Part shown: positions 3,623 through 43,815 of the stretch, in pieces
How positions within the stretch are numbered: position 1 is the first letter of the stretch
Layout: each line of letters starts with the position of its first letter
Assembly: GCA_964562615.1 (NCBI GenBank)
Contig: CAZLUD010000001.1
Coordinates: 327,628-391,627 of the forward strand
Length of the DNA: 64,000 nucleotides
Reading direction: 5' to 3'
Source of the DNA: an uncultured Candidatus Saccharibacteria bacterium
GTDB lineage: Bacteria; Patescibacteriota; Minisyncoccia; Phycocordibacterales; UBA12088
The notes under the pieces: model-generated
Told to the model about the DNA's origin: nothing
The model's input: only the letters and a program-made list of their open reading frames with translations
The model's database searches: none
Program-made: the position numbers and the translations under genes

Positions 3623-4054
3623 CTATTGTCTATCTGGCGGGAGCACAACCGTATGAGCTTCTCTAAAAAGCACCACATCGTCCCTTCCGTCGAGATCGGC
3701 GCCAGATACCCTAGTTCCTGCACGTATATCAATCGTTGGAAAAACTGGTAGCCTTGTACTGGGTGACATCACCTGCCCACCTTCTGTTGGTGGTATTGAT
3801 CTGGTGGAGTGACCTCCTCCACCACTACCCCAACCGATTCGGGGATTTATCCTTGCAGATCCGCCAGGGATTAGCTTCCCCGGGACTGGGGAATCAACGA
3901 AACTGAAACCATTTTTATCAGCCACGAAAGCCTCCTTGCGTCGCCAGGGTCGACGCGCTGTTTCCACTATTACCCCCTGGAGTGTGATCACTACGCAATA
4001 ACCACACTTCAGGGGGTAATACCTTAATAACCTCTTATTTTCCTCAAAGAACAA
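3623..4054 (-). CDS. Hypothetical Gly-rich small protein. The ORF-track start at 4054 is a TTG codon. A GTG at 3925, preceded by a perfect AAGGAGG Shine-Dalgarno 7 nt upstream, is a more plausible start and would give ~100 aa (3623-3925).
   Basis: Manual codon check of the minus strand. No family recognised. Confidence 0.3.
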   Translation of the reverse strand: MFFEENKRLLRYYPLKCGYCVVITLQGVIVETARRPWRRKEAFVADKNGFSFVDSPVPGKLIPGGSARINPRIGWGSGGGGHSTRSIPPTEGGQVMSPSTRLPVFPTIDIRAGTRVSGADLDGRDDVVLFREAHTVVLPPDRQ

Positions 4055-4225
4055 TCCATCTATACGACAACCAGCCCCTGTGTGGGGCCGGTTGAATGTT
4101 TTTGATGAAGCAATCTATTACACATCAAACCGGCCCGAATGATTTCCGGCAAACCAGAGCGATGTATATGCAAAAAACTGTTGCATATACACATGCTATC
4201 TCTAGCTATGTTATATGTCAACAAA
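3926..4225 (-). promoter_or_regulatory. Sigma70-like promoter on the minus strand (-35 TTGACA at 4217-4222, 17-nt spacer, -10 TAGCAT at 4194-4199). It is followed by a ~270 nt hairpin-rich leader ahead of the putative GTG start at 3925. This is a candidate cis-regulatory leader or riboswitch.
   Basis: The promoter hexamers have ideal spacing. The leader contains an 11-bp perfect hairpin (TGTATATGCAA/TTGCATATACA), a CAACCGGCCCC/GGGGCTGGTTG hairpin and a 17-bp near-perfect stem (TTACCCCCTGAAGTGTG/CACACTCCAGGGGGTAA). Confidence 0.35.
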
Positions 4226-4245
4226 AAGCGAGCCATGTGGCTCGC
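4222..4245 (-). terminator. Hairpin GCGAGCCACATGGCTCGC plus TTTTTG on the minus strand; terminator of ORF 4261-4518.
   Basis: Seen directly. Confidence 0.5.
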
Positions 4246-4260
4246 ATCATCTATGCGCTT

Positions 4261-4518
4261 TTATATGGCGCCTTGTGAGGTGTCTATTCGTATAGTACTC
4301 ACGTTTGGTAATCCTTTGAGCACCTCTCTTAAAGAAGTAATATCCACCTGCTTGTTGCCAGTATAGGCAAAAAAGGGCATTTTTGCTCCTTCAGCAAAAA
4401 GACAAAAGTGACGGCAATCACGAACATTGTTCAGTATTGTTGTGGTGGTGTCTTGAGAATTGTCTTCAATAACCACAAGGAAGCTTTGCATCATTTTTAC
4501 TCCTGCTGCCGACAGCAT
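4261..4518 (-). CDS. Hypothetical 85-aa protein (MMQSFLVVIEDNSQDTTTTILNNVRDCRHFCLFAEG...). Family not recognised.
   Basis: ORF lying between a structured GC-rich leader and a terminator. Confidence 0.35.
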   Translation of the reverse strand: MLSAAGVKMMQSFLVVIEDNSQDTTTTILNNVRDCRHFCLFAEGAKMPFFAYTGNKQVDITSLREVLKGLPNVSTIRIDTSQGAI

Positions 4519-4554
4519 AATACGACAAAAAATACGCTATGCCTACTACCATAA

Positions 4555-4800
4555 ATGAAAGAGCGGCCCCAAAGTTGGGGCCGCTCGGAGGGGGTAAAAC
4601 CCCCTCCTCGACGTGTGACCTTCGTTGGTCAGGCGCTGCCGGTCGAGTGCCTGGCCGACGGGTTGGTGCCGGTGGTGTCGACCCTGCGCGCCGACGGGTC
4701 GGTGCCGAGATTCGCCATGCTGATGACAGAAAACGGAGGATGCTTCGTTCGAGTCATTGCCATTCTCCATGAGCTAGGGTGGGGCTCTATGCCCCAATCC
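4555..4800 (-). ncRNA. GC-rich structured element of ~250 nt, far above the local GC content. Its minus-strand 3' end has two stacked perfect hairpins (GGAGGGGGTTTTACCCCCTCC then GAGCGGCCCCAACTTTGGGGCCGCTC) followed by TTTCATTT, about 40 nt upstream of ORF 4518-4261. It is a candidate riboswitch/leader or a small RNA; the identity is unknown.
   Basis: Hairpins seen directly. There is an internal 19-nt direct repeat GCCGACGGGT(T/C)GGTGCCG x2. The overlapping ORFs look like random translation of GC-rich sequence. No match was found to the RNase P P4, tmRNA or SRP motifs I could recall. Confidence 0.3.
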
Positions 4801-4972
4801 CATGCCTCAAGTAATATACACCAAACTAAAAATAAGTCAATAGACTGTAAACGAATTTTGCATGAGTTAAAAACCCCTCCAAAAAACCATTATGTGTAGC
4901 TATTTTTTGGAGCCACTCCTACATTTGTTCAAAAAAATCTTTTATTTCGAATTTTTTTATACTTTGAAGGCT

Positions 4973-5767
4973 TTATAGCTCTGCTCCTATCGCAAAAGAG
5001 AATCGGTCTTTAGCACTCTCGCCTTGAACGACGATTTCAACAAATCTATGCCCGTGTATGCCAGAACTGCCTATGATAAGGGCGCTTTCGCCCTTTGGTA
5101 CTGCAGCAAGATGCTCATAGCAGGTAAATGTCCCAAGCTTTGTTTGTACCTGCGCGCCTTCTGTGAAAGAAATTTCTTCTGGAAGAATGGTGGTCTTTGC
5201 ATTGCCAAAGTTATCTATCCACCATACCGCCCTTGGCGCTGTAGGAATTTCTTGTATTGAAATATTCTCTGCAGGAACCGTATTACCTTTTAAGAGATAG
5301 TCGAGCACCCTCGGGGTAAAATCAAAACTTCTAAATTGTGAGCCGATTATTCTGTTTCTCTCCTCTTCAGTTAAAGCACCTACACCCACCATTGCCTCCG
5401 TCACGGTAGGAATATCCATGAGCGCTACAGAATCCGCAAGCCCAAGCTTTTTGATAAGCGAGAGGGTAAGGCCATCAAATGATGATACAACAAGGGTGTT
5501 GTGTACCAAAAAGTGGCAAAACGGCGTGCCGTTTTGCCACTTTTTGCTTCCCTTATGGCGAGGTGCCACATTTACCAATACCGCGCTTGTGTGTGGGGTA
5601 TCACGATACGCATCAAGCACATCAATAAGGTTGCCAGCAGCTGAAAGATCACCGTAATCCCCCACCCCCACCAAAGAAACAGAAGCTCCAGAAAGCGCCG
5701 CGGCGCGAGCTAGCTGTCTTCCTCCTGCATTGTCATCGTGACAATCATTGATAACGGTAATATGCAT
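4973..5767 (-). CDS. SAM hydroxide adenosyltransferase-like protein (DUF62, the chlorinase/fluorinase-related family).
   Basis: The C-terminal motifs VWWIDNFGNAKT and ALIIGSSGIHGHRFVEIVVQGESA resemble the DUF62 signatures (I.YIDHFGN...LIGSSG.LEIAV..GSA). The N-terminus is less typical. Confidence 0.45.
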   Translation of the reverse strand: MHITVINDCHDDNAGGRQLARAAALSGASVSLVGVGDYGDLSAAGNLIDVLDAYRDTPHTSAVLVNVAPRHKGSKKWQNGTPFCHFLVHNTLVVSSFDGLTLSLIKKLGLADSVALMDIPTVTEAMVGVGALTEEERNRIIGSQFRSFDFTPRVLDYLLKGNTVPAENISIQEIPTAPRAVWWIDNFGNAKTTILPEEISFTEGAQVQTKLGTFTCYEHLAAVPKGESALIIGSSGIHGHRFVEIVVQGESAKDRFSFAIGAEL

Positions 5768-29817: not shown

Positions 29818-31596
29818 ATGAATGCAACAAGATCAATCATAATTTCATCGCTTCTGATCATCAGTGCGTACGCATCTTCTGTTTGGATATATTCCCCAAA
29901 GCTCTCTGCTCAGACACCTCCTCAAGAACCAGTTACCTGTGAAGAAGTAGACACCACCATCGCACAGCTCACCGCCCTTCGAGCACGAGCAGAGGCAGCA
30001 GACACTCCAGAGGAGATGCAGGCAGTAGTGGATGAATTTAATAGACTAGAGACACATAATGGTAACGATTTGGTGGTAGCACAACAAGAAAATCAACTTG
30101 AAGATAGAAGAGCATATTTAATAAGTAGAATAGAGGACACAAAGGAGGTTGATGCAGCACAAGGTGGAAGAAATGCAGAAGAGCTTGATGAGCTACTTGC
30201 ACGAGCAGAGGCTGCAGATGACTTTACCGAGCTTGGACGAGTAGAAGGAGAGCTTGGTGAGATACGAGGGAGATTGGGGCTTAGCGGTGGAGGAAGTGGT
30301 GGGGGTGGGGGAGGAGGGGGAGGTGGAGTAATTGGTGGAGGAGGCGATGGATCATGGGCTGGAGGAGTGCTTGATGGCAGTGGCAAAAACAACAGAGCGC
30401 CCGTTCCTGCATTTACAAGAACAGTTGTGCTTGGGCCAGGAGATGATATACAAGGGGCAATTAATAGTGCTACCCCAGGCACTGACATCCAACTCAAAAG
30501 TGGTACGTACAATTACTCCAACCTAAGCATAAGCGGAAAGGGTGGAAATCCGAACGCATGGATACGGCTTGGCAATGCTCCTGGAGAACATCCTATTCTT
30601 AGGCCGACAGGAGGATATGCAACCCTAAACGTGGCAGGCGGTTCGAGCTATATTCTAATTGAGGGACTGGAAATAAATGGGAGTAGGGTGGGAACAACAC
30701 TTCCTGATGGGACATATATTGGATCATGGAATGATATGCTTGCCTACTCTAATAGGAGTTGCAGTAATATCGGATACCATTGCAATCAGGGTATAATGCT
30801 CGGTTGCGGAGGCTGTAATACCAATCAAGGGCACCACATTGTCGTTCGAGATAATGTTACCCACGACTTTGGAGGCTCTGGTATTAGCACCTTTGGTGTT
30901 GATTATGTGATTATTGAAGACAATGTTTCTTTCAATAATGGCAATTTCTCTCGTTATGGGGAGAGTGGTATATCTGCTGGATTTCCAGCACTGGTAGGGG
31001 GAGGAAGCATGAGTGACTACGGCTTTATTGTAAGGAGAAACACCACCTACGATAATAAGCAATACTTGGGGTCAATAGACTGTGGTTGTGGCCCAGGTAT
31101 TACCGATGGTAACGGCATAATTCTTGACGGTATGGATCATAATGGTGCATACAGAAGAGTTCTTGTTGAGAGTAATCTTTCGTACAACAATGGTGTTGAG
31201 GTGCCTGGGCAGGGTGTGCATGGGTCAGGAATGCATTCAGTCGATTCTTCTAATGCAGAGTTCATAAATAACACCGCGTATGGTAATGCAGCTGCGCAGA
31301 TATTTGCATGTTGCGCCTCAAACAACAATAAGTTTTACAACAACATAGCAATAGGCAATAGGCCGTTGTTTGCTGCCCACGGTGTCCCTTTTACTGGAGG
31401 ATGTAACATATCGAGTGGTTCTGAAAATGTACCTACTACTGTTACTGACCCAATGTTTGTAAACCCTAGCGCTGGAGACTTTAGCTTGCGGGCGGGATCT
31501 CCGGCAATAAACGCCGCATGCGGACAAACCGCATCAAGCGACCTTAATGGAGCCCTCGCAAATGGGGCAAAAGATATCGGTGCTATAGAAATGTAG
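29818..31596 (+). CDS. Secreted protein with signal peptide, shared coiled-coil N-module, Gly-rich linker (GGGSGGGGGGGGG) and a C-terminal right-handed parallel beta-helix domain (pectate-lyase/polysaccharide-lyase-like repeats).
   Basis: Recurrent N-x-G/NNG-type beta-helix coil motifs (VRDNVTHDFGGSGIST, IEDNVSFNNGNFSRYGESGISAG, VESNLSYNNGVEVPG, INNTAYGNAAAQ). Confidence 0.5.
   Translation: MNATRSIIISSLLIISAYASSVWIYSPKLSAQTPPQEPVTCEEVDTTIAQLTALRARAEAADTPEEMQAVVDEFNRLETHNGNDLVVAQQENQLEDRRAYLISRIEDTKEVDAAQGGRNAEELDELLARAEAADDFTELGRVEGELGEIRGRLGLSGGGSGGGGGGGGGGVIGGGGDGSWAGGVLDGSGKNNRAPVPAFTRTVVLGPGDDIQGAINSATPGTDIQLKSGTYNYSNLSISGKGGNPNAWIRLGNAPGEHPILRPTGGYATLNVAGGSSYILIEGLEINGSRVGTTLPDGTYIGSWNDMLAYSNRSCSNIGYHCNQGIMLGCGGCNTNQGHHIVVRDNVTHDFGGSGISTFGVDYVIIEDNVSFNNGNFSRYGESGISAGFPALVGGGSMSDYGFIVRRNTTYDNKQYLGSIDCGCGPGITDGNGIILDGMDHNGAYRRVLVESNLSYNNGVEVPGQGVHGSGMHSVDSSNAEFINNTAYGNAAAQIFACCASNNNKFYNNIAIGNRPLFAAHGVPFTGGCNISSGSENVPTTVTDPMFVNPSAGDFSLRAGSPAINAACGQTASSDLNGALANGAKDIGAIEM
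29954..30320 (+). repeat. Copy 1 of a 367-bp near-identical intragenomic repeat encoding the shared N-terminal module. It pairs with 31741-32107.
   Basis: Nucleotide alignment by eye; only a handful of mismatches. Confidence 0.85.
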
Positions 31597-31607: not shown

Positions 31608-33065
31608 ATGAAAAACGCAATCAGTATAAGTAGTTTTGTATCACTCGTAGTGATCGCGCTATCGTGCGTGAGCATCATTCCAACAAGAAGTAGTGCGCAA
31701 ACACCACCGCAAGAACCGATTACTTGCCAAGAAGTTTCTTCCACCATCGCACAACTCACCGCCCTTCGAGCACGAGCAGAGGCAGCAGACACTCCAGAGG
31801 AGATGCAGGCAGTAGTGGATGAATTTAATAGACTAGAGACACATAATGGTAACGATTTGGTGGTAGCACAACAAGAAAATCAACTTGAAGATAGAAGAGC
31901 ATATTTAATAAGTAGAATAGAGGACACAAAGGAGGTTGATGCAGCACAAGGTGGAAGAAATGCAGAAGAGCTTGATGAGCTACTTGCACGAGCAGAGGCT
32001 GCAGATGACTTTACCGAGCTTGGACGAGTAGAAGGAGAGCTTGGTGAGATACGAGGGAGATTAGGGCTTAGTGGTGGAGGAAGTGGTGGGGGTGGGGGAG
32101 GAGGGGGCACAGTAGGTGGAGGAGGCGGGGGCACCACCACACCAGGAACAGGGGTGGGCTCAGGTACCGCTGCGGGTACACCAACAGACACTGGCTTTGC
32201 TCCAGCAGGGTATACACTTGCGTGGAATGATGAATTCAATTCTCTTAGCTTAGGAAGTGGTTCAGCGTTTAGATGGACGCCATTTGATACGCTTGCTGCA
32301 AATGCTGGATATGATGCAAAAGGAAGAATACTTGCAAGTAACAGCTCTGATGCTATATGGGTTGCTGATTACGAAACAAATGCAGGTGGGACACGAACGT
32401 ATGGTGACGCATTTAAGGCAGCCGGCACCTACGGTGAGGGGCCATTCTTCCATGAGGTAAGTGATGGCGCACTTGCTATGCGTGCGTATCCAGTACCAAG
32501 CTCAGTACGCAACGAATTTATTGCGTATGGATGGCCGCAGGGTGCTCCATACGCCGCAGGTGGAATATTTGGATCACTCTCACATACCCAAACATACGGC
32601 TACTATGAAGTGCGGCTGCGTGTAAATTCAATAACAAGAGGCCAACATTTTGCGCTTTGGCTACTCCAAGACGACCTTGCATGGCCTCCTGAGATAGACA
32701 TGCTTGAGGTTATTGGTGAAAATCCTCAGTTTTATCACACTACCGTACACGGCGAAGGGCCAAATGGCTCTGACCCAACCACCTCATTTAAGCTGCTTCC
32801 AGCAGGAGGGAGCGGGACATGGCACACCTACGGATTTTTGTGGACACCTGAAAGTATGCGATTTTTTGTCGATGGAAAGGAGTATTTCTTAAGAGAAAAT
32901 TATGGGGAAGGGGCAGAAATAGGAACATTACCTAACTTTGTAAACAAGCCAATGTACCTCCTTGCAACCTGGGAAATGGCAAGCTATTGGCCAGGAGATC
33001 CTGATGCAACTACCGTGTGGCCAGCAGAGGTTGAGCTTGATTACGTCCGCATCTACAAACCATAG
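31608..33065 (+). CDS. Secreted protein: the same N-module plus Gly-rich linker as 29818-31596, fused to a glycoside hydrolase family 16-like (beta-glucanase/laminarinase-type) domain.
   Basis: GH16-like motifs WNDEFN and catalytic E-I-D-M-L-E (PPEIDMLEVIGE). Confidence 0.55.
   Translation: MKNAISISSFVSLVVIALSCVSIIPTRSSAQTPPQEPITCQEVSSTIAQLTALRARAEAADTPEEMQAVVDEFNRLETHNGNDLVVAQQENQLEDRRAYLISRIEDTKEVDAAQGGRNAEELDELLARAEAADDFTELGRVEGELGEIRGRLGLSGGGSGGGGGGGGTVGGGGGGTTTPGTGVGSGTAAGTPTDTGFAPAGYTLAWNDEFNSLSLGSGSAFRWTPFDTLAANAGYDAKGRILASNSSDAIWVADYETNAGGTRTYGDAFKAAGTYGEGPFFHEVSDGALAMRAYPVPSSVRNEFIAYGWPQGAPYAAGGIFGSLSHTQTYGYYEVRLRVNSITRGQHFALWLLQDDLAWPPEIDMLEVIGENPQFYHTTVHGEGPNGSDPTTSFKLLPAGGSGTWHTYGFLWTPESMRFFVDGKEYFLRENYGEGAEIGTLPNFVNKPMYLLATWEMASYWPGDPDATTVWPAEVELDYVRIYKP
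31741..32107 (+). repeat. Copy 2 of the 367-bp near-identical repeat (pairs with 29954-30320).
   Basis: Nucleotide alignment by eye. Confidence 0.85.
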
Positions 33066-33131: not shown

Positions 33132-35558
33132 ATGATAGGTGTATCGCTGTGCATCTTGCACTGTTATATGGCTGCATCACCATTACATAATTTGTATACT
33201 CGCATAAAAAACTTGGTGGTATGTGGATTTGCTGAGCATAAACGCATACTCGCTATCTCGCTTGTGGTAGTGGTGACGCTACTTTTTAGTGCTACTCCAT
33301 ACGCAACACACGCTGCCAATTTGTGGGAAATTATAACCACACCACAGCTTATGTTTGCGTGGGTTGGCTCAGGAGTGTTGTGGCTCATGAGCGGTATCTT
33401 GGGTATTACGGCAATCCTCCTCAATATCACAATTTTGCAAACCGTAACCGGGATGGGAAATCACATCAACGACATAATAGGTATACAAATTGCCTGGGCA
33501 CTACTACGTGATATGGCAAATATATTGTTTATCTTTGGCATTGTATACATAGGCTTGAATCTTATTCTTGGCAACAATAGACACGGGCATCAGCAAGCAC
33601 TTGCACGACTTGTGATTATCGCGCTCGTCATTAACTTTAGTCTCTTTATAACAAAAACCGTAGTCGAGACATCGAATGTAATGGCGAACACGATATTTAG
33701 ACTCATTATTCCTCCGGGCACAACTGGGAGTCAAGCGTGTGATGGAAGAAGCACGCTTCCAGAAAACGTAATACAATGCGTAAATTTTGGTATTACAGGA
33801 ATTATTAATAACTCCCTTGGTCTTACTACGGTATTTAACGTTGGGGGTACTGCAAACTCAGCTGGATTTACCTCTCCAACACTTAACAGCGCTACAGCAA
33901 TTGATGCGTCTAAAATCTTCTACATAACAGCACTCGGTTCAATATTTATTCTCATTACTGCGTTTGTCTTTGCGTCCGCTGCCGTGTTGTTGGTTATTAG
34001 ATTTGTCATACTGATTATACTCATGGTGTTTTCACCGCTTGCGTTTGCGGCGTGGATACTGCCTTCAACGAGTGGTTACTTTTCTTATTGGTTAAAATCA
34101 CTTCTCAATCAATCGTTTTTTGCGCCTGCCTACATGCTTATGATGTGGATCGCAATAAAAATAATCGAGGGGTATGGTGTCTCTACGGTTACTGGTGTTG
34201 CCACACGATCAAACAATTTTGGCGCAGCGCTCTTGGGCGCAAATGTTAGCTTTGCAAACGTATTCTTAAACTTTGCCATTATCACCGTATTTATGGTGGC
34301 AGCGCTTGTAGTTGCAAAGAAACTTGGCGCCATTGGCGCTGATAAGGCATACGGCATTGGTAAGGGATGGGTCAACACCGCACAGTCAACCGCGTATAAG
34401 TACAAGAGCACAATTGCGGCTGGAGCAGCGGGTGCAACTGTATTTCCTGCGCTTGTTGGAGGGGGGGCACTCCTTGGCGCAGCGGCTGGTGTTGCTGGGT
34501 GGAAGGGAACGAGAGTTGGCACGAAGGTAATTGCTGACGAGAGTGCAAGGTTTGCCGGCAGAAAGGTAAACGCGATAAATGAAAGATTGATGAAGGCCCC
34601 AGTAAAAGAAGGTGGTGTTAAAGACACAATAAGAAAAGCGACAATTGGACGATTAGACAATGCACTAGGCTACAGCCAAACAGTGGCAGCTGATGTGAAG
34701 TCAGCACAAGAGAAAGTAAAAGCCCTTTCTAGAGATGGAAATACAAAGGGATCATCTGATTTCCTTCTCGCACAACGTGAAGACGTAAGAAATACGCTAT
34801 TTGCAGGACTATCACCATCTGAACAAATTACTGTGGGGGCAGAGATGGGTAAGAATGTAGTGACTCGAGACGGACTGGTTGATAAGAAAGCTACGGATAA
34901 AAATATCAAGAAAAAAGCCGTCGCACTCTCAAGCCTACGTGAAAGCGCAAGAGAAAAATACCTTGAAGCCATGACAAAGGATTTTGCAAACGACTCAAAA
35001 GAGTTGTACAAACAAATCTCAACGCTTAATGGTGATGATCTAACCTACGCATACTCAAAAATGACTCCACGCATCAGAGCGGCGTACGAAACAGAACTTA
35101 ACAAGGCGACTGGAAATGATACTCGCACAAAATCTCTTAGAAAGACAATATCAATTGAGGATCAAGAAAAAACAGAGAAAGAAGCAGGTGAAGTAAAAGC
35201 TCGTACAGAGAAAAAATCAAGATCTGGAGACCTTATCACCTTGATACAGCAACATCAAACACTCTCTACAACACCAACAACCTCAAATCCATCTTCACCT
35301 ACCGGCACAGAGATTGATAATAAAATCCGTAACATTATTAGAGTAATGGGCGACAAAGAAGTAACGGATCTAAAACCAGATGTGTTGAAGAGTAAAGAAT
35401 TTGCAAAGCATGTAACAGTAGGAATGCTCTCTAAAATTGCTGCGGTAGACAATATCACGCAAGAGACCAAACAAACACTTAGAGATAATGTTATGAGTGT
35501 AAACAATACAAAAGGAATCAGTTGGCTACAAGACAAAGGTAAAGATTTATTCCAATAA
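33132..35558 (+). CDS. Polytopic membrane protein, VirB6/TrbL-like component of a type IV secretion system. It has a long hydrophilic C-terminal tail. The start is probably downstream of 33132.
   Basis: Six or more transmembrane segments in the first ~400 aa; Gly-rich intramembrane stretches. It is in a cluster with a VirB4 ATPase and PrgI-like proteins. Confidence 0.45.
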   Translation: MIGVSLCILHCYMAASPLHNLYTRIKNLVVCGFAEHKRILAISLVVVVTLLFSATPYATHAANLWEIITTPQLMFAWVGSGVLWLMSGILGITAILLNITILQTVTGMGNHINDIIGIQIAWALLRDMANILFIFGIVYIGLNLILGNNRHGHQQALARLVIIALVINFSLFITKTVVETSNVMANTIFRLIIPPGTTGSQACDGRSTLPENVIQCVNFGITGIINNSLGLTTVFNVGGTANSAGFTSPTLNSATAIDASKIFYITALGSIFILITAFVFASAAVLLVIRFVILIILMVFSPLAFAAWILPSTSGYFSYWLKSLLNQSFFAPAYMLMMWIAIKIIEGYGVSTVTGVATRSNNFGAALLGANVSFANVFLNFAIITVFMVAALVVAKKLGAIGADKAYGIGKGWVNTAQSTAYKYKSTIAAGAAGATVFPALVGGGALLGAAAGVAGWKGTRVGTKVIADESARFAGRKVNAINERLMKAPVKEGGVKDTIRKATIGRLDNALGYSQTVAADVKSAQEKVKALSRDGNTKGSSDFLLAQREDVRNTLFAGLSPSEQITVGAEMGKNVVTRDGLVDKKATDKNIKKKAVALSSLRESAREKYLEAMTKDFANDSKELYKQISTLNGDDLTYAYSKMTPRIRAAYETELNKATGNDTRTKSLRKTISIEDQEKTEKEAGEVKARTEKKSRSGDLITLIQQHQTLSTTPTTSNPSSPTGTEIDNKIRNIIRVMGDKEVTDLKPDVLKSKEFAKHVTVGMLSKIAAVDNITQETKQTLRDNVMSVNNTKGISWLQDKGKDLFQ

Positions 35559-43374: not shown

Positions 43375-43815
43375 GTGTTTAAGGCACTACTGAGGAGTGT
43401 GTTGCTCCTTGCTTTTCTTGGGAGCCCCATTTATGGGGCTGAATACAGCAAAAAACCAATTGTAGTGGACGCACTGGGGGGGAGGATGTTAGGGGTTAAT
43501 GCCCTAACACAAAACGACAACTACATTTGGTATGGGAAAGACGAAGAAGTTCGGGATGTGACGATGAAAGTCATCTGCACTCTCGAACAGGCGAACACCG
43601 AATTTGTGGTTCTTGTCGATCCACAAACTAACAGTGCGGTTGAGGTGCGAGGGCATCACTTCATCTATCTCAAGTATTTTAGGGTGGACGGCATATCCAC
43701 CCACAAGTGCGACAAACGAGTCGTCGCGATCGAGAAGGGTACCTTAAAGAGTATCCTTCAGATAAACGAAGAAAAGCTGCAAATCAGGCAGGTGGCAGTT
43801 GTAGCTACAAACTAA
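43375..43815 (+). CDS. Small secreted protein (146 aa).
   Basis: Signal-like N-terminus. Confidence 0.3.
   Translation: MFKALLRSVLLLAFLGSPIYGAEYSKKPIVVDALGGRMLGVNALTQNDNYIWYGKDEEVRDVTMKVICTLEQANTEFVVLVDPQTNSAVEVRGHHFIYLKYFRVDGISTHKCDKRVVAIEKGTLKSILQINEEKLQIRQVAVVATN

Follow-up and report, generated by a model that had tools for sequence, protein, structure and literature searches.

The GC-rich island at positions 4555-4800 of the window (the whole 64-kb stretch of DNA that was analysed) is most likely a tiny self-contained gene encoding a fast-changing 42-residue peptide, rather than a riboswitch. With confidence somewhat better than even, we favour the prediction that it is a compact small gene, independently transcribed from the minus strand. 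This reading draws on the anatomy of the unit (Table 1), the conservation of its layout and reading frame in two related species (represented by L007 and L059), a compositional signal in its codons, allelic variation within the species and its status as an insertion, whereas its transcription and translation are predicted.

The segment had been singled out in an earlier note as strikingly GC-rich, and it is: its GC content is 0.63 against 0.438 over the whole window, which makes it the strongest GC island of the window and, outside long ORFs, the sole strong one, with a 150-nt peak of 0.707 lying about 5.6 s.d. above the mean. The high GC would come from two separate sources, the GC-rich stems of the untranslated regions (UTRs) and the G/C-ending codons of the ORF.

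Table 1. Features of the GC-rich unit and its surroundings, in window coordinates
Feature	Positions	Strand	Description
SAM_HAT terminator-like hairpin	4866-4912	-	Inverted repeat CTCCAAAAAA...TTTTTTGGAG then GGGTTTTT; upstream of the unit
Predicted sigma-70-type promoter	4813-4840	-	TTGACT-16 nt-TATATT, GTG just 5' of the -10 element; 10/12 match
5'UTR stem-loop	4777-4801	-	GGGAUUGGGGC-auaga-GCCCCACCC; from folding
Shine-Dalgarno (SD) GGAG	4765-4768	-	7 nt upstream of the ATG at 4757
Small ORF, 42 aa	4629-4757	-	MTRTKHPPFSVISMANLGTDPSARRVDTTGTNPSARHSTGSA; ends in TGA (4631-4629); two residues longer (MA) if started at the in-frame ATG at 4763
Hypervariable ORF core, 96 nt	4635-4730	-	From allele comparison
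Two 18-nt direct repeats	4654-4671, 4690-4707		17/18 identical, spaced 36 nt
3' stem-loop 1	4616-4631	-	UGACC-aacgaa-GGUCA; includes the stop codon; from folding
3' stem-loop 2	4587-4607	-	GGAGGGGG-uuuua-CCCCCUCC (DNA: GGAGGGGG-ttttA-CCCCCTCC)
Intrinsic terminator	4551-4586	-	11-12 bp GC-rich stem, then UUUCAUUUAU
Downstream orphan gene	4261-4494	-	Most likely 77 aa, ATGATG after AGGAG; listed as 85 aa from 4518

Transcription signals and folding

The promoter at 4840-4813, with a predicted transcription start at about 4807-4805 on the minus strand, is the same in all alleles, is identical at 27 of 28 positions in L059 and is still recognisable in L007 (TTGACT-16-TAGATT). It would yield a transcript of about 255 nt, insulated from transcription upstream by the SAM_HAT terminator-like hairpin. 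Only the minus strand has a predicted promoter and terminator, and no plus-strand promoter was found in 4000-5200. The two adjoining perfect minus-strand hairpins and the U tract reported earlier are present at 4607-4587 and 4586-4561. The second of them (GAGCGGCCCC-aacttt-GGGGCCGCTC, then TTTCATTTAT) has an 11-bp stem with 9 GC pairs and the form of an intrinsic terminator, and equivalent terminators close the units of L007 and L059. From the end of the U tract to ORF 4518-4261 there are about 33 nt, in line with the roughly 40 nt previously given.

The description of the segment as hairpin-dense applies to its ends and fails for the ORF between them. Compared with shuffled sequences, the 5'UTR folds of the window and the two relatives have z-scores of -1.6, -2.4 and -3.8 and the 3'UTR folds -7.2, -4.3 and -3.8, while the five versions of the ORF fold no better than shuffles (z -0.09, +0.35, +0.72, +1.22 and +1.72). 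The division holds in both relatives, whose UTRs carry stem-loops and whose ORFs have no excess structure. In L059 the 5' stem-loop occupies the same position with two double compensatory changes (G-C to U-A and U-A to C-G), and L007 carries a different stem-loop there. The 5' stem-loop (4801-4777) and the three 3' stem-loops would bracket the transcript; the 5' hairpin and the stacked 3' hairpins would protect the mRNA ends and terminate transcription, so that a stabilising role in the mRNA, with no ligand sensing, may be ascribed to them.

The proposal that the segment is a riboswitch or attenuator leader of ORF 4518-4261 fared poorly. An Rfam scan of the window returned only five tRNAs above the gathering thresholds, none of them in the island; at permissive thresholds, the best matches in 4000-5100 had E values of 0.023-7.7 and scores far under gathering, the homologous units of L059 and L061 gave nothing consistent, and ARAGORN detected no tRNA- or tmRNA-like gene in the island. 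The unit shares with Rfam riboswitches and leaders its GC-rich hairpins, the terminator at its end and its place upstream of a gene; it differs from them in having an unstructured centre, a translated-looking ORF and no covariance-model match. A conserved ligand-binding fold is not seen, the central 96-160 nt being without excess structure and unalignable between species. Furthermore, the unit has a promoter, SD and ORF of its own, and is kept in L007 without the downstream gene.

Start site, reading frame and codon composition

It had been stated that the segment holds no convincing ORF and that all its frames are nonsense, neither of which survives inspection of the minus strand. The ORF at 4757-4629, with GGAG placed 7 nt upstream, has no internal stop in any allele or relative and shows a base composition peculiar to its frame. 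The arrangement GGAG-N7-ATG occurs in the window, L007 and L059 with spacers that differ in sequence (AATGGCA, AAAAGCG and ACCTTCG, respectively). The ORF encodes 42 amino acids in the window, 40 in allele B, 32 in allele C, 53 in L007 and 25 in L059; its length is weak as evidence, because all frames tend to be open in GC-rich DNA. Its frame is preserved, as indels come in multiples of three and the period-3 composition is in phase with the start.

Codon statistics set the ORF apart within the window. Its GC3 is 0.81 (0.67-0.85 across versions, with 0.8-0.85 in the two related species) against a background of 0.38 +/- 0.06 for 56 window ORFs, with 0.57 as the ceiling for any other gene, and by codon usage it is the ORF of the window that departs most from the genome (CAI-like z -4.1). 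Adenine is found at codon position 3 in 1/41, 1/39, 1/31, 3/52 and 0/24 codons of the five versions, whereas the first two positions carry it in about 28% of cases (Fisher p for the position-3 depletion, 1e-4 to 0.09). Translationally optimal codons were considered as the source of the high GC3 and rejected, the bias being present in no other gene of the window. The period-3 signal alone does not separate the sense frame from the antisense frame that shares its wobble position; the latter is interrupted by stops in alleles B and C. A 114-aa ORF on the plus strand was likewise discarded, having no homologues and containing stops in alleles B and C.

The predicted peptide

Ribosomes would enter via GGAG-N7-AUG and translate an unstructured, C-rich and U-poor ORF of 42 codons into a short, mostly hydrophilic and probably disordered chain, whose segments include HPPFSVISMANLGTDPSAR and the tryptic peptide VDTTGTNPSAR. 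Between species, the only conserved parts of the peptide are H-P-[P/T] near the N-terminus, kept with synonymous differences (CCT/CCC and CCG/CCC), and [S/T]-A at the C-terminus. Constraint would fall only on N-terminal M-x-R-[S/T]-x-H-P-[P/T]-x-F and, weakly, on the C-terminal [S/T]-A. The window peptide is hydrophilic and that of L059, alone among the versions, is hydrophobic, so this character is not conserved. The direct repeat described in the earlier note is present with a length of 18 nt rather than 19, and corresponds to a 12-codon internal duplication (GTDPSARRVDTT / GTNPSARHSTGS).

A HMMER search of 1.84 billion representatives retrieved only allele B of the same species, which has independently been called as a 42-aa gene (protein record P0121), and two repeat proteins; the latter matched through the low-complexity stretch TTGTNPSAR and were judged to be repeat-inflated chance. 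A peptide word search gave no match. A degenerate DNA pattern comprising the SD, the start and the HP motif had eight matches in metagenome contigs, all by chance, and the promoter pattern had none in viral contigs.

Alleles within the species

Three alleles occur in the species of the window, with differences confined to the 96-nt core and flanks that are 96.6-100% identical. Alignment with allele B gives an identity of 82-85% over the core, as against 96.6% in the flank upstream of it and 100% in the flank downstream; with allele C, only about 45% of the core can be aligned, between flanks that are 99.8-100% identical. The alleles differ in length by 6 and 30 nt, through indels of 3, 3, 6, 18 and 3 nt. 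Allele B has diverged only about twice as much as neutral sites in the neighbouring gene. With a dN/dS of 0.87 for the core and 0.69 for the whole ORF (18 differences), and core differences spread 7:4:7 across codon positions, the core shows no clear purifying selection on amino acids. A comparison of two sequences had suggested that the core is an unrelated captured 'spacer'; allele B ended this reading by revealing that each allele is a homologous mosaic of the others. Outside its constrained ends, the peptide would drift or diversify fast, by substitutions and by in-frame gain and loss of repeats, giving several alleles per species. Several metagenome contigs break at the GC island.

Relatives, neighbours and insertion history

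In L007 and L059 the unit likewise lies directly downstream of the SAM_HAT gene, whose product is 86% and 82% identical, respectively, at the amino acid level. The order of elements is shared throughout: promoter, 5' stem-loop, GGAG-N7-ATG, GC-rich ORF, three GC-rich stem-loops and U tract. The dS of SAM_HAT against these two species is 1.0 and 1.25, approximately saturated at synonymous sites, and the features conserved in their units are therefore under constraint. The core sequences of the window, L007 and L059 are not alignable. The 7-mers shared between species exceed those in position-preserving shuffles (p 0.002-0.02), and some shared words lie out of frame, for example CCGTCGGCCA in the window and L007, which together give a hint of constraint at the nucleic-acid level.

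Where SAM_HAT identity falls to 57-67%, the gene is followed immediately by the ancestral leaderless small ORF, and the GC island is missing. The compositional anomaly and the absence from the same site in sister lineages mark the unit as a clade-specific insertion, with which the downstream 77-aa gene was probably co-inserted. A homologue of that gene follows the unit directly in L059 (47% identity, E 2e-17); none is present in L007, though the unit there is intact. The four small proteins encoded downstream had no matches in Pfam, NCBIfam, PHROGs or PADLOC, and the single-sequence AlphaFold model of the 77-aa protein (pLDDT 57.7) had no Foldseek match in the PDB with E < 0.4. The small peptide and this adjacent protein may be linked. 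The only enzymes nearby are the SAM_HAT-family protein, an M20 peptidase and a trypsin-like protease, all of which also occur in lineages without the unit. A RiPP or bacteriocin locus is not indicated, as no relevant Pfam, NCBIfam, PHROG or PADLOC matches were found among the neighbours. Neither is a type I toxin-antitoxin system, the window peptide being hydrophilic and 4000-5200 being without a plus-strand promoter.

Alternative explanations

An unlikely alternative is that the transcript itself is functional, its C-rich, U-poor and unstructured centre binding a protein or nucleic acids, with the ORF incidental or secondary. The earlier suggestion of an independent structured sRNA is well supported as regards an independent promoter-to-terminator unit of about 255 nt. 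Consistent with an RNA function, the centre is constrained in composition and free in sequence across species with a dS of about 1, it folds slightly less well than shuffles, which would suit a single-stranded region open to binding, its peptide core shows no clear purifying selection, and out-of-frame words and surplus 7-mers are shared. However, the unit looks like a small mRNA, because the SD-ATG spacing, the reading frame and the period-3 composition are all conserved: the spacing is kept exactly, the frame survives indels, the depletion of A at position 3 is in phase with the ATG in all three species, and the H-P-P/T motif is retained through synonymous changes. No complementary target of the unit RNA was found within the 64-kb window, Rfam gave no match, and a regulator of the cell's own genes would hardly be expected to have a seed that is hypervariable in one species.

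The layout recalls small-ORF (sORF) genes and dual-function small transcripts such as RNAIII/hld, SgrS/SgrT and SR1/SR1P, which share with the unit a length of about 250 nt from their own promoter to an intrinsic terminator, structured ends, an internal SD-led ORF of 25-53 codons and a tendency to be overlooked or mis-called by gene finders. The unit departs from them in that no base-pairing function or target was found, in its extreme G/C-ending codons, conserved across species in a 44% GC genome, in a peptide core that is allelic in one species, and in its lack of sequence relation to any described family.

Rather improbable is an attenuator in which translation of the small ORF, with conserved Pro-Pro near its start and non-preferred codons, tunes read-through of the terminator into the 77-aa gene. 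Such a role would suit the succession of a strong promoter, a short ORF, a terminator and, 57 nt further on, a co-oriented gene whose own promoter is weak (9/12). The unit of L059 likewise precedes a homologue of the downstream gene, and in L066 a natural deletion removes the terminator and fuses the unit to the SD of that gene. The association is not constant, however, as the intact unit of L007 stands without the gene, and in both the window species and L059 the stretch from the terminator to the downstream gene holds a plausible promoter. Minimum-free-energy and centroid folds alike consist of independent local hairpins, with no antiterminator pairing to the terminator arm, and about 45 nt separate the stop codon from the terminator stem downstream, which places a terminating ribosome out of reach. 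The ORF is also long and shows no enrichment in one regulatory amino acid. The unit resembles trpL, hisL and mgtL/mgtP in its short ORF with prolines near the start, its strong intrinsic terminator and the co-oriented gene, and differs from them in the distance from stop to terminator and in having no regulatory codon runs or visible antiterminator.

It is very unlikely that the unit is recently acquired high-GC DNA, for example from an actinobacterial host, persisting as a functionless relic or captured gene fragment. The earlier idea of acquisition from a high-GC organism would fit the status of the unit as an insertion relative to sister lineages, which lack it, and its foreign-looking codons: high-GC coding DNA typically has a GC, GC3 and RNY-like codon pattern such as these, which are an extreme outlier here, and the organism is Saccharibacteria-like. 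No donor emerged, as blastn of four different cores against 72,556 plasmids and 50,697 phages returned nothing or chance-level matches of 30-50 nt, and neither strand's frame has a protein homologue. Moreover, the promoter, SD and 5'UTR are native-like and conserved, and the alleles are mosaics of one another rather than independent captures. Three species at a dS of about 1 keep the GC-rich core in frame with the same start, and the retention of this composition argues for maintained selection over a recent unameliorated fragment.

A further proposal is a long shot: the GC-rich core could be kept as nucleic acid or mimic and not for any defined peptide, as a composition-selected, sequence-free cassette with a high-GC codon signature. 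An epibiotic, Saccharibacteria-like cell would express it strongly from a stabilised transcript, and it could act on a high-GC (actinobacterial) host or the phages of that host. Its form of action could be that of an antisense or decoy RNA, or that of a disordered peptide resembling those of the host, and different alleles would follow different hosts.

CPR bacteria are rich in diversity-generating retroelements (DGRs). That the core is the target of a DGR or of cassette gene conversion is nonetheless extremely improbable and was rejected: as in DGR variable regions, hypervariation is limited to about 100 nt at the 3' end of the ORF, followed by GC-rich hairpins, codon position 3 is poor in A, and several contigs break at the island, but a sensitive blastn search of 4610-4770 against the whole 64-kb window found only itself, with no template repeat or silent copy, the alleles have in-frame indels and many invariant adenines in place of adenine-restricted, indel-free variation, allele B shows the modest divergence given above, and 42 codons are far too few for the known target fold.

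Comparison with pherotype loci and implications

For the small-gene reading, polymorphic peptide-signal or bacteriocin precursor genes, the pherotype loci of the comC and agrD type, offer a parallel. They too have a small ORF with a conserved N-terminus and a variable remainder, several alleles per species, near-identical flanks and recombination breakpoints at the locus. In contrast to them, the unit has no double-glycine or known leader and no adjacent processing, export or sensor genes, and its dN/dS of about 0.7-0.9 is not clearly above 1.

In full-text literature, no such element was found for Saccharibacteria or Patescibacteria. If the small-gene reading is right, a candidate structured RNA becomes an unannotated small gene that gene callers mis-call, and the unit is a new orphan small gene without being a new class of element. 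It would also be a clear example of selection on synonymous sites, since, in a genome with a GC3 of 0.38, G/C-ending, A-avoiding codons have outlasted one or more substitutions per synonymous site, which is unusual. For Saccharibacteria and CPR bacteria, it would represent a clade-specific, allelic small peptide beside an orphan 77-aa protein, a type of locus that may take part in strain-specific interactions. In three contigs (L001, L003 and L004), gene callers called a 77-aa antisense ORF instead of the small ORF.

A probable small gene within the GC-rich island

The most plausible reading of the GC-rich island is a compact small gene on the minus strand, whose translation and function we infer. 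As the earlier note had remarked, the segment is compositionally distinct, with a GC content of 0.63 at 4555-4800 versus 0.438 for the whole window and a 150-nt sliding-window maximum of 0.707, ~5.6 sd over the mean. Three other stretches of the window exceed 0.60, and because all of them lie within long plus-strand ORFs, this is the sole intergenic GC island. These stretches (30235-30410, 31983-32240 and 34416-34566; GC 0.61-0.65) fall in the consecutive plus-strand ORFs 29818-31596, 31608-33065 and 33132-35558, the second of which has a glycosyl hydrolase family 16 domain, while the first and third gave no match in Pfam. The two perfect minus-strand hairpins noted earlier are present, and so is the direct repeat (4654-4671 and 4690-4707), although it measures 18 rather than 19 nt; its copies are 17/18 identical at a spacing of 36 nt and represent a 12-codon duplication inside the small ORF.

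Same-species contigs from several metagenomes, gathered by exact-protein look-ups with neighbouring genes and then aligned, revealed three alleles: A (window, L001/L003, L004/L065; peptide MTRTKHPPFSVISMANLGTDPSARRVDTTGTNPSARHSTGSA), B (L005/L064, L070; MTRTHPPFANISMAKLGIGTSARKVDTTGTDPSARPAGSA) and C (L002; MDRTHPPFATFANTVDSTDIDTGTAARPADTA). The three differ little or not at all in promoter, 5′UTR, 3′ hairpins, terminator and downstream region. In the downstream flank, B matches the window at every position over 1,734 nt and C over 298 nt, and identity in the upstream flank is 96.6% (B) and 99.8% (C). The 96-nt core of the ORF (4730-4635) is 82-85% identical to the window in allele B and only ~45% alignable in allele C. 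Every indel (3, 3, 6, 18 and 3 nt) is a multiple of three, and the frame from ATG 4763/4757 is open in all alleles, with its stop placed in the conserved flank, which overturns the previous view that the segment held no convincing ORF. A long plus-strand ORF over the island, a gene-finder candidate, has stops in alleles B and C and no homologues, and was rejected. Gene callers put an Arg/Gly-rich antisense ORF on the island in three contigs, missing the small ORF led by a Shine–Dalgarno (SD) sequence; only for allele B (L005) did the call agree with the strand and frame proposed here.

Neither a word search nor HMMER found a peptide family for the small ORF. Two large proteins matched by HMMER are repeat proteins having the word TTGTNPSAR in common with its peptide. 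In the peptide VDTTGTNPSARHSTGSA (window 4632-4700), the repeated word [T/L]-G-T-x-P-S-A-R matches the segment TTGTNPSAR(R)xHSS of P0122, a 636-aa repeat protein taken to be Kelch-like; the E value of 4e-5 is summed over five repeats, and we judged the match to be a repeat-inflated chance match. We regard the unit as a new orphan small-protein gene.

Coordinates of features in the window and in related contigs
Feature	Sequence	Position	Strand	Remarks
Hairpin	window	4607-4587	-	perfect inverted repeat
Hairpin + TTTCATTTAT tract	window	4586-4561	-	perfect; scored as intrinsic terminator
Antisense 77-aa call	L001; L003; L004	5138-5371; 2747-2980; 763-996 (= window 4539-4772)	+	automatic calling
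Contig ends	L002; L006/L067; L066; L063	window ~4337; ~4640; ~4843; ~4887
Leaderless ORF promoter	window	4221-4193	-	TTGACA-17-TAGCAT; ATG ~7 nt past -10
Leaderless ORF	window	4186-4118	-	22 codons, MQQFFAYTSLWFAGNHSGRFDV; ATG 4186-4184, stop 4120-4118; no SD
Leaderless ORF counterpart	L059	~2548-2651 (= window 4118-4221)		MQKFFAYTSLWFSGNYPGRFDV
Leaderless ORF counterpart	L007	~5245-5350 (= window 4118-4221)		MQQVFAYAFSWLLPMIGGRMRA
Leaderless ORF, distant relatives	L048; L062; L073; L075; L077	4843-4911; 3823-3897; 3270-3344; 3317-3391; 3320-3388
Leader hairpin	window	4069-4095	-	AACCGGCCCC-acaca-GGGGCTGGTT
Leader 17-bp hairpin	window	3970-4019	-	TTACCCCCTGAAGTGTG...CACACTCCAGGGGGTAA
Leader hairpin	window	3939-3957	-	GCGTCG-accctgg-CGACGC
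AAGGAGG, then GTG start	window	3925	-

Equivalent units in related species

The window organism belongs to the Patescibacteria/CPR, and the nearest reference genome, labelled uncultured Candidatus Saccharibacteria, is L007. Both L007 and a second related species, L059, carry an equivalent arrangement of parts immediately 3′ of SAM_HAT, the gene directly upstream of the unit (86% and 82% amino acid identity to the window, respectively). The promoter TTGACTTATTTTT[A/T]GTTTGGTGTATATT has 27/28 identity between the window and L059, and in L007 it reads TTGACT-16-TAGATT. The 5′ stem-loop of L059 differs from that of the window by two double compensatory changes, and L007 has a different stem-loop. 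GGAG, 7 nt and ATG recur in all three species, followed by GC-rich ORFs of 53 aa in L007 (MNRSDHPTSFAML...) and 25 aa in L059 (MPEHPPLICALF...), and both units end in three GC-rich stem-loops and a U tract. Since dS of SAM_HAT from the window is 1.0 for L007 and 1.25 for L059, the features still common to the unit versions are constrained: promoter, SD-ATG spacing, structured UTRs around an unstructured ORF, and composition. H-P-[P/T] near the N-terminus is likewise kept in the three species, with synonymous differences, and a C-terminal [S/T]-A is weakly common to their peptides.

Codon composition

GC3 is 0.38 ± 0.06 in 56 non-overlapping window ORFs, with a maximum of 0.57 barring the spurious antisense ORF on the island; a 109-aa plus-strand ORF at 43486-43815 has the second-highest value in the window (0.57). 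The small ORF reaches 0.81 in the window, 0.76 and 0.67 in alleles B and C, 0.81 in L007 and 0.85 in L059. In the same five versions, A occupies codon position 3 in 1/41, 1/39, 1/31, 3/52 and 0/24 cases, whereas the first two positions have ~28% A (Fisher p = 5e-4, 2e-3, 5e-3, 1e-4 and 0.09). In all three species this three-nucleotide periodicity runs in phase with the ATG behind the SD. An antisense frame sharing wobble positions would fit it as well, but that frame is without promoter, SD or conserved start and has stops in alleles B and C. Codon usage of the small ORF is the least adapted to the genome in the window (z -4.1) and is unmatched by any other window gene, so a 'highly expressed' codon class was discarded as the cause. 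Neutral sequence should have decayed to low GC after dS ~1; this one did not, and its composition is therefore maintained. The GC-richness of the island is best read as GC-rich stems plus maintained G/C-ending codon usage, and the odd feature of the gene is a synonymous-site composition held far from that of the genome.

RNA structure and alternative readings

Compared with shuffled sequence, 4545-4810 is more stably folded on either strand (z -5.7 for the minus and -7.4 for the plus strand), the plus strand at lower energy because, as the complement of a C-rich, U-poor strand (A.20, C.38, G.27, T.15), it gains G-U pairs. On the minus strand, the excess belongs to the ends of the region, not its centre (5′UTR z -1.6 to -2.1; 3′UTR z -7.2; central ORF z -0.09). 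The 5′ hairpin is best read as a stabiliser and the 3′ hairpins as stabiliser and terminator of the small gene.

The unit is possibly also a dual-function small transcript. Some support for RNA-level constraint comes from the cores of different species, which have more 7-mers in common than do position-preserving shuffles (p 0.002-0.02) and also share a single 10-mer that lies out of frame; this keeps a dual-function or non-coding reading alive. A leader-peptide attenuator of the downstream 77-aa gene fits less well, because L007 keeps the unit without that gene. The riboswitch envisaged earlier found no counterpart among known RNA families: cmscan at gathering thresholds gave five tRNAs and nothing else in the whole window, permissive settings on 4000-5100 gave sub-threshold matches to unrelated sRNA models only, all due to the terminator hairpin, Rfam searches of homologous units gave nothing consistent, and ARAGORN found nothing in the island. 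Independent capture of foreign fragments was rejected, alleles A, B and C being mosaics of one another, and plasmids and phages searched for a high-GC donor of the cores yielded chance-level matches at most. A diversity-generating retroelement (DGR) variable region was dismissed on the lack of a template-repeat-like copy in the 64 kb, the allelic indels and many invariant adenines.

Divergence of the core

The allelic variability of the small gene is notable. Between alleles A and B, the core has dN 0.19, dS 0.22 and dN/dS 0.87, with differences of 7:4:7 by codon position, and no purifying selection on its amino acids was detected; SAM_HAT for the same pair has dS 0.093 and dN 0.015. We estimate that the core changes at ~2x the local neutral rate and that repeat-mediated in-frame indels add to this, the 36-nt duplication in allele A being one case. 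Allele C is carried on flanks identical to those of A, and recombination is therefore required.

Contigs end at, in or beside the island in four independent assemblies, consistent with several alleles co-existing in samples. In L066 (1-160, Logan SRR8640623), a deletion across a 10-nt near-repeat (GTCGACAGCA/GTCGGCAGCA) brings codon ~17 of the allele C ORF up against the SD that precedes the 77-aa gene. The remainder of the small ORF is lost, along with the terminator and every 3′ hairpin. Either a genuine strain variant or a chimeric molecule could account for this.

Insertion and neighbouring genes

In L048, L062 and L073-L078 (SAM_HAT 57-67% identity to the window), SAM_HAT is directly followed by a leaderless ORF of 22-24 codons (M[Q/H]..IIAII..AG.V..). 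Next in order come a hairpin, a structured leader and a ~100-aa gene. The DNA word ATTATTGCGATTATT is near-invariant across these lineages, synonymous sites included, which suggests constraint at the nucleotide level. The counterpart in the window, L007 and L059 lies further downstream and resembles a unit for a leader peptide or small protein 5′ of the next gene; from this displacement relative to the sister lineages, the GC-rich unit is a clade-specific insertion. The adjacent 77/85-aa gene appears to be part of the insertion both in the window and in L059.

For this gene (ORF 4261-4518, minus strand), the most probable start is ATGATG at 4494, behind AGGAG, which would give 77 rather than 85 aa. 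Its homologue in L059 (107 aa, 47% identity, E 2e-17) shares the C-terminus FCLFA..A..PFF.YTG.K.V....LR.V.K......I..DTSQGAI, and L007 is without it; the gene is a genuine, conserved orphan. Family searches matched neither its protein nor the other small neighbours, and a single-sequence structure model (pLDDT 57.7) was too poor for use. Before the next gene lies a structured leader (3939-4095, minus strand) that is without a match in Rfam and near-identical in L007. Two longer calls, of 143 and 122 aa, cross the leader hairpins and are probably over-extended, and the gene after the leader is called as 100 aa (3925-3623) in some contigs.
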